A stretch of DNA of 35,768 nucleotides from a virus (Duplodnaviria; Caudoviricetes): IMG/VR virus record IMGVR_UViG_3300032218_000317, positions 1-35,768 of that record. One strand, written 5' to 3'. The position numbers and the translations under genes are program-made. The notes under the pieces were generated by a model that was not told the DNA's origin, did no database searches, and worked only from the letters and a program-made list of their open reading frames with translations. Positions 14,933 through 25,550 of the stretch are shown here, one piece after another (position 1 is the stretch's first letter; every line of letters starts with the position of its first letter).

Positions 14933-14981
14933 AGTAATTTCCCCTTCTTTGCAATTGACTGTGTAACTGCCATCTTTTTCT

Positions 14982-15152: not shown

Positions 15153-15393
15153 TTTGACCCCCTTTTGCTTTAAGCGCTTTAAGATAATTTTTAAGTGCGG
15201 TGTCGTCATCCCTAAATATTAGATTAAAAAGATGATTTGTTGGGCAGCGTGGTGTGTGCGGTTCAAATGTGCCTTTTCGGACATAGAAAGAAAATGCCCT
15301 ACAAGCCAATTCTTCATTTTTGCAATTTTGTGCTTGGTCGCACTTGTCGCATGGTGCTTCGCCTTCAAAAACTCTGCGAATGTAATCTTCCAT
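15139..15393 (-). CDS. Cys-rich hypothetical protein
   Basis: AAGGGGAA RBS; PCDKC..C..C pattern. Confidence 0.7.
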   Translation of the reverse strand: MEDYIRRVFEGEAPCDKCDQAQNCKNEELACRAFSFYVRKGTFEPHTPRCPTNHLFNLIFRDDDTALKNYLKALKAKGGQIDLL

Positions 15394-15412
15394 TTATTCC
15401 CCTTAAAAAGAA

Positions 15413-15481
15413 AGCAGGTCAAGGTCTTTTTAGTTTGAAATCCCTACGGGCCATAAAGCTGAATAGTGTCAATGACCTGCT
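15413..15481 (-). ncRNA. Candidate structured leader/sRNA: 9-bp closing stem around a 51-nt interior
   Basis: AGCAGGTCA (15413-15421) and TGACCTGCT (15473-15481) are perfect inverted repeats. Confidence 0.45.
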
Positions 15482-15551
15482 ATGAAAGTAATTTATTACT
15501 GTTTTCAAGGGTTAGACATAGGTGTTTACCCTAGTTTTGCATAAATACAAC

Positions 15552-15639
15552 AGGGCTGTATTTGGCAGTTACTGCGAATAGGGCAGAAAGCCGCAAAATT
15601 CCCTAATTACTGCATCCTACATTGGCGGCTTAACGCCCT
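15552..15639 (-). ncRNA. Candidate pseudoknotted RNA
   Basis: Four nested helices plus a 7-bp bulge-to-apical-loop pairing (AAGCCGC/GCGGCUU). Strand inferred from the operon direction. Confidence 0.6.
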
Positions 15640-15647
15640 TAAAAAGG

Positions 15648-15678
15648 TGACCTACTCGCTTCTTTACGCTTTCGGTCA
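15648..15678 (-). ncRNA. Hairpin with loop-E/bulged-G-like internal loop
   Basis: UGACC-GAAA-GC-GUAAAGAA-GC-GAGUA-GGUCA, with GAA opposite AGUA. Confidence 0.45.
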
Positions 15679-15683
15679 TAGAA

Positions 15684-15744
15684 GGTGGGGGCGGTCTGCA
15701 CGGACAGACATGGTAGATGAAAAGGGGAAAATCACCTCGCCCCC
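15684..15744 (-). ncRNA. Candidate tRNA-like (D-armless) small RNA with an anti-RBS loop
   Basis: GGGGGCG AGGUGA UUUUCCCCUUU UCAUCU ACCAU GUCUG UCCGUG CAGAC CGCCCCC ACC; one G.U pair favours the minus strand. Confidence 0.65.
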
Positions 15745-15749
15745 GTTGT

Positions 15750-16499
15750 TTAGTTTAACTTATTTTTAAGTTTGTATATGCCTAAAAGATGTAAAAACAT
15801 TTGATAGCCGTCTCTAAGGTCTTGTTCGGTATGTTCATAGATGGCAACTTCCCCAGTTTCACCATTGATATACACATTGGCGCATCGTGCAGAAGGTGCT
15901 AAGACCTCTCTATACGCTGCTAGTTGTGTGGTATGTTCTAGGTAGGGTGTTAAATCACCAGGGGATTTTTCTGTCGTCTTAAAGTCAATTACTACCCCAG
16001 AAAAGTCATGGCGTGCTTTGCAATACAAATCGCACTTACCACCATATCCCTCTTGGGCATTTACTAGACTCTGTTCAGCAATCCATAACTGAGGCCCAAA
16101 ATGGGCTGTTATAGCCTCGTCTACCTTGCGGACATACGCTGGCATATCTGGCAGGTATTCTTGGCTGTAAAACGATTCTAAGAAGTCATGGATGATTGTG
16201 CCTCGGTCAGCCGCTTCTTTAGATTTGCGCTTGGCTAACTCTAAGATTCTGTAAACCCAATCTTTTTCTTCTTCATCTTCGTAGCGTGGGTATTCAACGG
16301 CTGCGTATAAGACTTGTGTTTGTTTCCAAGTGTCAAGTCCAGCTTTAGATAATTGGCTGTTAATTGTAGAAACGGAAGGTACGAGAGTTCCTGGGTTTGC
16401 TTTTGCGTCACGCAAAGTTGTGCTTCTCTCTTTTCCATTTTTTCCTATAGTTGTATATCGTGGTGCGCCAGTTACGGCATCGTACCAATGTTCACTCAT
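15750..16499 (-). CDS. PD-(D/E)XK exonuclease-like protein
   Basis: PSVSTI, AADRGTIIH, E..GYGGKCD..VIDFKT..QLAAY motifs. Confidence 0.85.
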   Translation of the reverse strand: MSEHWYDAVTGAPRYTTIGKNGKERSTTLRDAKANPGTLVPSVSTINSQLSKAGLDTWKQTQVLYAAVEYPRYEDEEEKDWVYRILELAKRKSKEAADRGTIIHDFLESFYSQEYLPDMPAYVRKVDEAITAHFGPQLWIAEQSLVNAQEGYGGKCDLYCKARHDFSGVVIDFKTTEKSPGDLTPYLEHTTQLAAYREVLAPSARCANVYINGETGEVAIYEHTEQDLRDGYQMFLHLLGIYKLKNKLN

Positions 16500-16518
16500 A
16501 ATTTCCCCTTTGTTTACT

Positions 16519-17611: not shown

Positions 17612-17652
17612 TTAAGTCCCCCTTAAATACATAGCGAATTTGCTATATACAC

Positions 17653-17686: not shown

Positions 17687-17715
17687 TTGATAAATATATT
17701 ATTTTTATGTAAGAT
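17687..17715 (+). promoter_or_regulatory. Rightward sigma70-type promoter giving a probably leaderless cro-like mRNA
   Basis: TTGATA-17 nt-TAAGAT; ATG follows 6 nt later with no SD. Confidence 0.65.
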
Positions 17716-17721
17716 TGACGC

Positions 17722-17991
17722 ATGAATACAACATTAGCACTTACAGACGCACAAATGATAGGTCTTTTGGGGGGCGCTAAAGCTGTTGCAAACCTTTTTA
17801 AAATTGATGTTGCGGCTGTTAATCAATGGAAGGTCAATGGTATTCCGCTTAACAGACTAGTATTTTTGGCGGCAGAAATTGAAAAACAATCACATGGTTT
17901 GGTTACTCGTAAAGATATGTTTCCAAAACTAGCATTTTATGTATGGCCTGAACTTGTGCCAAAAAACAACAGTTTTATTGAAAGAGAATAG
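17722..17991 (+). CDS. Cro/YdaS-like HTH regulator
   Basis: LGGAKAVANLFKID.AAVNQW..NGIP..R and terminal WPEL motif. Confidence 0.85.
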   Translation: MNTTLALTDAQMIGLLGGAKAVANLFKIDVAAVNQWKVNGIPLNRLVFLAAEIEKQSHGLVTRKDMFPKLAFYVWPELVPKNNSFIERE

Positions 17992-18006: not shown

Positions 18007-18198
18007 CCTTATGCTGGCGGCTTTAACAACATCGTGGCGGCATAAGGTTTAGCGTTACCAGAGGGAAGAGGCTGAAACAGCGCAATATGGGTGGCGAAGA
18101 TAGTGCCCATGCCTCGCAAGACTGTCGGGTGATGCGATTCCTCAATGGAAGCATTTGAAGGCACACTTAGGTAGGCTAGGTGTGCTTAAACCTCTTGG
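18007..18198 (+). ncRNA. Candidate large multibranch non-coding RNA
   Basis: At least six helices in an ORF-free gap; multiple G.U pairs favour the + strand. Confidence 0.65.
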
Positions 18199-18296
18199 AA
18201 GTTGTTTTTAAACAACTAAGGATAAATACTAATAGCTATAACTAAAATTTACTAAGAAACTAAAAGAACTCAATAACGAGTTAAAAGGGGAATTAA

Positions 18297-19149: not shown

Positions 19150-19331
19150 GGTATTTATGTCATCTTAGACATAAAAAAGGGTTGTCTTGGTTTAGAAATT
19201 ACATTAGTGAAAAGAATTTTAGCCAAGCATTATTAAACGATTTTTACGACCAATGGAAATTGGGTAACAAAGGGGAATGGGGATGTTGGAAAAATACATT
19301 GTTGCAGCAACAGGGCTTGGGTATTTGGTAG
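19116..19331 (+). CDS. Hypothetical protein
   Basis: 71-aa ORF, KHECGVRYL..QWKLGNKG. Confidence 0.55.
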   Translation: MYEQAKHECGVRYLCHLRHKKGLSWFRNYISEKNFSQALLNDFYDQWKLGNKGEWGCWKNTLLQQQGLGIW

Positions 19332-22535: not shown

Positions 22536-22580
22536 TCAATTCCCCTTATACTGTAAGTTGCTAAACACTAACATATTATT

Positions 22581-24176: not shown

Positions 24177-24341
24177 TCATTCCCCTTTTAAAAGATTAAA
24201 TACTGCATTTTTTAGGTCAATTGCGTTTTCCATCATGTAGCCCGAATAATTCATTGAATCGCTTCTAGAATAGGGTTCTAAATCCCTTTCAATAGCCAAA
24301 ATTAGTTCCTTTACTTCCTGTAGTCTTTTTTCTTGCGTCAT
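24177..24341 (-). CDS. Hypothetical early protein, 54 aa (not in the ORF track)
   Basis: MTQEKRLQEVKELILAIERD...; AAGGAG RBS. Confidence 0.65.
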   Translation of the reverse strand: MTQEKRLQEVKELILAIERDLEPYSRSDSMNYSGYMMENAIDLKNAVFNLLKGE

Positions 24342-24629: not shown

Positions 24630-24839
24630 TTATTCCCCTTTTAATAATGGATATTTTTCAATCATTGATTCGTCTGCCTCGCAAACATCGTCAATCTGCC
24701 AATCACAATCGTTTAGTTCTACAAAGTCCCCTCCATCTAAGCCAATAGCCAGTTCGTAGGCTTTTTCTTCAGATTCAGCTTCAATATTGACAGCGTAGTA
24801 AGTAATTTGTGAAGTCATTACACGATAAATCTTAGTCAT
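24630..24839 (-). CDS. Acidic small protein (DpnD/PcfM-like pattern)
   Basis: Y.V..V.IEAESEE.A; AAGGGGAAA RBS. Confidence 0.65.
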   Translation of the reverse strand: MTKIYRVMTSQITYYAVNIEAESEEKAYELAIGLDGGDFVELNDCDWQIDDVCEADESMIEKYPLLKGE

Positions 24840-24886
24840 AGTATTTCCCCTTAATGAAATGGGCTAAAAATGCCCTTTAAATGCGT

Positions 24887-25519: not shown

Positions 25520-25550
25520 TTTGAATCCCCTTTAAAACATTGATAAATTG

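Follow-up and report, generated by a model that had tools for sequence, protein, structure and literature searches.

The window, by which we mean the whole stretch of DNA analysed here, is the complete 35,768-base virus record of a freshwater phage with a GC content of 41%. Scans of its proteins against PHROGs and Pfam placed terminase, portal, capsid, tail and endolysin genes on the plus strand. The early region is arranged in lambdoid style, with a Cro-like gene at 17722 lying between a leftward early unit that encodes Erf, SSB and exonuclease and a rightward early unit that includes a replication protein. The 42 window proteins scanned against PHROGs and the 30 scanned against Pfam included no integrase, CI-type repressor or antirepressor, in agreement with an earlier, sequence-only reading of this DNA that had described a phage with no CI. 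No SD precedes the cro-like gene (window 17697-17724), which may therefore be leaderless, and the two divergent early promoters have only about 110 bp in common. A Betaproteobacteria-1 RNA sits between the cro-like gene and the first rightward gene, and is found in 22 of 46 related records; this strong match suggests a betaproteobacterial host. The loops of this RNA show apparent internal pseudoknot covariation, which is absent from the Rfam structure line.

15750..16499, minus strand: exonuclease gene, the last gene before module 1 and also a predicted target
17722..17991, plus strand: Cro-like HTH gene, the sole repressor-like gene found; not a target
18007..18130, plus strand: Betaproteobacteria-1 RNA (Rfam, 90.9 bits); context, separate from module 1

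A structured RNA downstream of the exonuclease gene

The exonuclease gene is followed by an array of small RNAs, the first of which, module 1, begins 5 nt past the stop codon. It carries an arm whose loop is complementary to a type of ribosome-binding site (RBS).

15684..15744, minus strand: module 1, an RNA with a three-way junction (closing stem, anti-RBS arm, second hairpin) that begins with G at +1 and ends in a 3′ ACC
15744-15738/15693-15687, minus strand: closing (first) stem, 7 bp
15737-15732/15720-15715, minus strand: anti-RBS arm, 6 bp with one G.U pair
15721..15731, minus strand: exposed loop with a run of four C, complementary to AAAGGGGAAAA
15709-15705/15698-15694, minus strand: second hairpin, 5 bp
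15686-15684, minus strand: 3′ ACC

All parts of this fold, which the sequence-only reading had proposed for the minus strand, were located at these coordinates. A linker of 5 nt separates the anti-RBS arm from the second hairpin, and the loop (15731-15721) has a predicted unpaired probability of about 1.0. The minus-strand fold was better than shuffled sequences (z −2.82, with 2 of 200 shuffles as good), whereas the plus-strand fold was not (z −0.69). On this ground, and for lack of an ATG-led ORF downstream, we rejected the loop as a plus-strand RBS. Module 1 was unmatched in Rfam in the window, in 15450-15800 and in 12 distant loci, as the novelty claimed for it had implied, and BLASTN of annotated phages gave no match.

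We examined 80 viral loci with close exonuclease relatives, two of which stop too early to judge. Module 1 was present in all 78 evaluable loci, in 77 by pattern and in one variant (L010) by eye, and the loop and 3′ ACC are nearly fixed among these close relatives. The viral contig collection holds 195 exonuclease-bearing stretches among close relatives, and the module 1 family is common in it. The stem covariation foreseen for relatives was borne out: across 13 distinct window-type sequences, 6 of 18 pairs changed on both sides, all within the two arms, and 97.4% of cells pair, a level reached by none of 500 shuffles and compared with 45-58% in slid controls. G.U pairs in the covariation alignments point to the RNA strand, and the window-type model found a single match per genome in the 11 genomes searched. 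Module 1 is a real structured RNA.

An ORF of ~500 nt, homing-endonuclease-like by eye, lies between the exonuclease stop and module 1 in two loci (L005 4745-5283 and L073 2705-3187), both of which retain module 1 despite the insert.

In distant relatives the first stem is 7-15 bp long and variable in sequence, with its pairing kept, while the second hairpin is lineage-dependent and in several lineages is only a bulge. The core that persists is a closing stack of ~13 bp, a G at +1 (58 of 71) and the 3′ ACC; the U that RNase P favours at −1 is found in only 16 of 71, which speaks against processing by this enzyme. Of 80 distinct candidates, a set that includes false positives, 46 have the ACC immediately after the longest stem and 14 more have it there when the register is shifted by one base. 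Loops are 7-14 nt long and their C-runs 3-6 nt. Seven loci (L140, L259, L262, L265, L279, L297 and L300) keep the fold and ACC with a CAAAA/ACACAAU loop and the arm CUCCUUCAC. For the CAAAA-loop variants, of which three genomes were examined, and for UCCCUCC-loop variants we found no RBS class matching at 7 nt or more. Because the CAAAA-loop variants retain the fold without an RBS match, the scaffold may have another or older role.

Early ribosome-binding sites and their co-change with the loop

In the window, the sequence AAGGGG stands before 9 of 27 non-late genes and before none of 31 late genes (Fisher p 4.4e-4). Across the window and ten close genomes the figures are 65 of 288 and 0 of 286, from related genomes whose counts are not independent. 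Gene calls came from a simple script with an SD term blind to the class, and the late/non-late split is based on homology; the caller overlooked two window targets, 15393 and 24627. Besides the loop, the window contains 13 AAGGGGA sites, 10 of which lie 0-7 nt before the ATG of an ORF of at least 35 aa, as against 6.8% of random positions. We refer to RBSs of the type AAGGGGAA, as opposed to AAGGAG, as the private class. The predicted targets in the window are the following.

14940..14946, minus strand: predicted target RBS, 60-aa gene
15398..15404, minus strand: predicted target RBS of the 84-aa gene that comes first after the array
16502..16511, minus strand: predicted target RBS, exonuclease (10-nt match)
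17617..17624, minus strand: predicted target RBS of the gene that opens the leftward early unit; five-G variant
18283..18292, plus strand: predicted target RBS, first gene after the Betaproteobacteria-1 RNA, rightward early unit (10-nt match)
19270..19276, plus strand: predicted target RBS, 48-aa gene; site within upstream coding sequence
22541..22547, minus strand: predicted target RBS, metallophosphoesterase
24180..24189, minus strand: predicted target RBS, 85-aa gene (10-nt match)
24633..24642, minus strand: predicted target RBS, 57-aa gene (10-nt match)
24846..24852, minus strand: predicted target RBS, 69-aa gene
25526..25532, minus strand: predicted target RBS, 103-aa gene heading a minus-strand cluster

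The sequence-only reading had quoted the four 10-nt matches, all of them correctly; three involve the closing U of the arm. Loop-only duplex energies are −12 to −15 kcal/mol on the 11 targets and −8.5 kcal/mol or weaker on late RBSs, and the anti-SD motif gives about −7 kcal/mol on most of the same 11 sites. Orthologues that recurrently carry the site are the exonuclease, the first gene of each early unit and the phosphoesterase. A gap or strand switch precedes 52 of 72 G-run genes and 81 of 211 others, in genomes that are related. Late genes have AGGAG/AAGGA sites in all loop classes, and in none of 26 genomes did a late gene match its own loop at 7 nt or more. The idea that the early programme is shut off through an RBS class gains from a class that is early-only, but its reach would fall short of the whole early programme, as only about a third of the non-late genes called in the window carry the site.

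Of the 42 genomes sorted by class, 26 have a C-run loop following the exonuclease and 16 have none; two others, in which no exonuclease was found (G049 and G053), were left out of the counts. We tallied non-late RBSs with a G-run followed by A. Genomes with four-C loops have four-G sites in 72 of 83 cases, those with three-C loops have three-G sites in 14 of 17, and a five-C lineage (G017-G020) has five or more G in 18 of 21. The flanks co-change too, as in G045 (TAGGGG) and G016 (TCGGGGG). In the 16 genomes that lack the loop, 7 four-G and 4 five-G sites occur before 440 non-late genes, and 11 four-G sites before 293 late genes; loop-less relatives are mostly without an early-only class. On an exonuclease tree, for which the G009 protein was mis-called short, the loop classes require 8 changes. 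An eight-lineage permutation of the own-loop diagonal of a double-centred match matrix gave 6/40,320 for match length and 14/40,320 for energy, p-values that are indicative, as the lineages were set by hand and three of them (E, F and G) come from one clade. Loops were taken as lying inside the innermost G-C pair, but were set by hand with the RBS lists already seen.

The expectation that the loop follows the early RBS of each genome thus holds across the lineages, two of which fit imperfectly. Lineage D (G021/G022) ranks its own loop 5-6 of 8, and the five-C loops of G012/G015 and the six-C loop of G002 occur with four-G sites, where 7-nt pairing remains. Cross-matching among the loop and RBS variants is often substantial. 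One genome (G033) has three four-G early sites and no loop found, in a genome-wide scan that recovered only 20 of the 26 listed C-run loops, and in G038/G039/G041 the RNA is absent and G-run sites occur on early and late genes alike. The co-change of loop and RBS across distant lineages is our strongest result. The central proposal of the sequence-only reading, a structured RNA whose loop would target a class of the phage's own non-structural RBSs, is partly supported.

A CCCC loop in G044, a genome tabulated with the others but kept outside the eight-lineage test, was considered as module 1 and rejected, since it belongs to module 3 of the array and pairs in cis.

Predicted function, alternatives and known systems

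From these comparisons, module 1, a conserved covarying RNA with a loop complementary to a non-structural G-run RBS class, is probably a trans-acting small RNA that blocks translation of that set. Pairing on the SD should exclude the 30S subunit, so that repression is far likelier than activation. The RNA would be transcribed as part of the exonuclease unit, in the leftward early transcript, and cut at G+1 by host RNase P, which would recognise the ~13-bp stack and 3′ ACC. The stable matured product would build up, and its loop would pair over 8-11 nt across the SD of about 11 genes and so exclude the 30S subunit. The block would be strengthened by polarity, since many of the targets stand first in their units, and could extend to downstream genes that lack a site. 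Late genes, whose AGGAG/AAGGA sites form mismatches with the C-run, would escape. As the RNA is a distal product of the unit targeted, its purpose is most economically explained as delayed negative feedback that brings early expression to an end; exclusion of superinfecting phages of the same class would be a compatible second use.

On a more ambitious version we are evenly divided. It describes an RNA-programmed regulon with an orthogonal address code, in which chosen early SDs would have been recoded to a private G-run still read by the host and an RNase P-matured RNA would read only that variant. Guide and address would co-evolve (GGG, GGGG, GGGGG and flanks), protein-free early shut-off and immunity would replace CI, and the modular array would hold several undescribed RNAs. 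If the RNA does silence a co-evolving private RBS class, it would join single-locus phage antisense control with RegB-type class shut-off, and offer one answer to how CI-less phages could set the timing of early expression or keep out their kin. Nature supplies compensatory alleles in the three-, four- and five-G loop/RBS pairs, which could become orthogonal translation switches.

The same pairing could instead serve mainly superinfection exclusion or a carrier state, with the loop/RBS variants acting as immunity groups and not in the timing of the cycle. Since this shares the molecular mechanism of trans repression, it differs in purpose only. The variants of loop and RBS number at least eight lineages, the proteins scanned lack an integrase or CI-type repressor, and specificity differences of the phage RNA C4, as between P1 and P7, define immunity (PMC5320573), all of which suit such a role. 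We regard it as possible though rather unlikely, as the frequent cross-matching would leave immunity groups leaky, the placement of the RNA within the early unit targeted suits feedback, and the RNA-bearing genome contigs (2.9-38.9 kb) showed no prophage context.

A purely local role is improbable. Module 1 would then act in cis where the leftward transcript ends, in processing or stabilisation or much as a terminator does, with its loop pairing only with a nearby RBS, that of the exonuclease or of the next gene. Its start so close to the stop codon and its U-rich tail fit such an element; so do an intrinsic terminator-like hairpin at this spot in relatives that lack module 1 (L121-L133), and the retention of the fold in CAAAA-loop variants. 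Against this, the matching class extends across some 10 kb, involves both strands and separate units, and shifts as a whole with the loop, and a promoter/terminator scan called no terminator at module 1. Within the RNA-less clade L125-L129, some members carry UUCCCCUU just 5′ of the terminator-like hairpin past the exonuclease stop, as a relic or by coincidence.

We think it slightly less probable still that loop and RBS co-vary indirectly, whether through hosts that differ in their anti-SD, through the base composition of each lineage or through a binding site shared at the protein or DNA level, even though the lineages are few and partly related. A shift in the host anti-SD should have moved the late genes as well, and these keep AGGAG/AAGGA in every loop class. 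The motif lies at SD spacing on the coding strand at 10 of 13 sites, and the G.U pairs mark the RNA strand. Four Burkholderiales genomes, which serve as proxies and are not the host (54-62% GC against 41% in the phage), end their 16S in the canonical way, and in 100-kb samples of them AAGGGG stands before 3 of 383 genes.

The description of module 1 as 'D-armless tRNA-like' is overstated, since only the ~13-bp stack, G+1 and 3′ ACC are conserved; the 7-bp stem and T-arm proved lineage-specific, and the T-loop consensus is absent. Unlike a tRNA, module 1 has no fixed 7-bp acceptor stem and no fixed 7-nt anticodon loop, and its second loops are of UCCGUG/UUCAC types, the window's being one that we take not to be a tRNA T-loop consensus. 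In a tRNA about 17 nt separate the T-loop position from the discriminator. A UCAC/UCCG-type motif lies 16-19 nt from the end of module 1 in 55 of the 68 rows having the motif, in a search limited to 12-22 nt and with 7 rows misregistered at 13. The base after ACC is U or C in 71 of 71, so that CCA is not encoded. A functional tRNA mimic, acting as a CCCC quadruplet Gly frameshift suppressor or as a decoy for tRNA-cutting defences with the RBS match secondary, is very improbable, for despite this minihelix-like spacing and an array shared with real tRNA genes in some relatives, the loop, C-run and stem vary in length as given above, CCA is not encoded, ARAGORN called no tRNA anywhere in the window, Rfam gave no tRNA match, and the RBS tracking would be left unexplained. 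RNase P reads a 3′ RCC by pairing (PMC4919922), and the ~13-bp stack, G+1 and 3′ ACC fit an RNase P substrate better than a tRNA.

For the preferred reading of module 1 as a trans-acting repressor, the nearest comparison is C4 of P1/P7, a small three-stem phage RNA that RNase P cuts from a longer transcript at the 5′ end of P1; its loop pairing occludes an RBS, and its specificity is set by co-varying loop and target (PMC5320573). Like C4 (RF01695), window-type module 1 is a three-stem junction closed by P1, with a third stem that is a bulge in several lineages, and three C4 alignment rows in PMC2864571 likewise start with G after AUG and end near CACC/CGCC. The C4 model gave no match at E up to 5 in the window, 10 in 15450-15800 and 3 in the 12 distant loci. 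Where C4 has paired a′/b′ loops, one loop of module 1 matches the targets, and inspection of the RBS lists by eye showed no conserved second site. C4 acts on dedicated a/b sites in one operon, whereas module 1 has about 11 dispersed predicted targets defined by the SD itself. C4 also lies in an immunity region with an antirepressor operon, in contrast to module 1, which follows the exonuclease in a window whose scanned proteins include no antirepressor, CI or integrase. Of C4-type RNase P 5′ maturation, module 1 has the signals only (G+1, and ACC after the stem).

The CI RNA of satellite phage P4 and the CA RNA of N15 consist of a stalk and two hairpins, are matured by RNase P, are encoded in the transcript that they control and impose a polar translation block. 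They act on their own leader only, whereas module 1 matches a genome-wide RBS class. Exposed C-rich loop seeds on the G-rich SDs of many mRNAs are also known from RsaE, RNAIII, LhrC and the cuckoo RNAs, which are chromosomal and have host genes with ordinary SDs as targets; to our knowledge none of these C-rich anti-SD sRNAs is built on a scaffold of RNase P type or has private targets that co-vary with it as a class.

In phage T4, early genes are marked by a GGAG SD class and inactivated through the SD by RegB, which spares late transcripts (PMC3014915). The restriction of the SD class to non-late genes in our phages follows the same logic. RegB is a protein nuclease that needs S1 and cuts a canonical SD; here, by contrast, the predicted reader is an RNA loop, and it co-evolves with an SD class peculiar to these phages. 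Scans of the window proteins against PHROGs (42) and Pfam (30) gave no RegB family hit, many small proteins being without a family. Antisense RNAs of phages, C4 among them, are confined to one locus, and the known means of shutting off an early class through the SD is a protein nuclease. The literature searched does not describe this RNA, the supplements of PMC5737381 and PMC10690425 lying outside it, so that the motif could be among the 10,006 candidates of PMC10690425. Within that compass module 1 is an undescribed structured RNA, with comparative evidence for trans pairing to a private early RBS class.

Other elements of the array

Two further RNA modules and a dyad follow module 1.

15646..15677, minus strand: module 2, 4-bp stem, GAAAG/AGUA internal loop, variable hairpin, 3′ ACC
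15553..15638, minus strand: module 3, a separate conserved RNA with covarying pseudoknot-type pairing
15519..15533, unstranded: dyad closing the array, conserved in most relatives, just upstream of a promoter-like region

As seen in the window and in L004, L071, L080, L258, L295, L310 and L318, the GAAAG/AGUA internal loop of module 2 is loop-E-like, its inserted hairpin is highly variable and the module is sometimes repeated; in L295, L310, L318 and MW202674.1 the insert bears C-rich or anti-SD-like loops.

Module 3 is more widespread than module 1 and has no Rfam match at threshold; over modules 2-3 the RAGATH-26 family matched at E 4.6, short of significance. Both sides of the long-range pairing in module 3 differ between lineages, with at least three versions of the double change (L021, L062, L076, L155, L180 and L185), and the module could be a ribozyme, an antiterminator or a protein-binding RNA. 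A 9-nt window match had raised module 3 as an antisense to the Betaproteobacteria-1 loop, which we rejected as the match does not track in L017 or L065.

The dyad at 15519-15533 is likely an operator or promoter element for the next unit, probably an operator for the Cro-like protein. In many relatives the leader of the gene at 15393 contains a further conserved hairpin (15480-15425, minus strand), closed by the stem AGCAGGUC/GACCUGCU. In L010 (2716-2788), L065 (4817-4889) and L062, a real tRNA gene (GTT anticodon by eye) occupies the array right after module 1 or 2.
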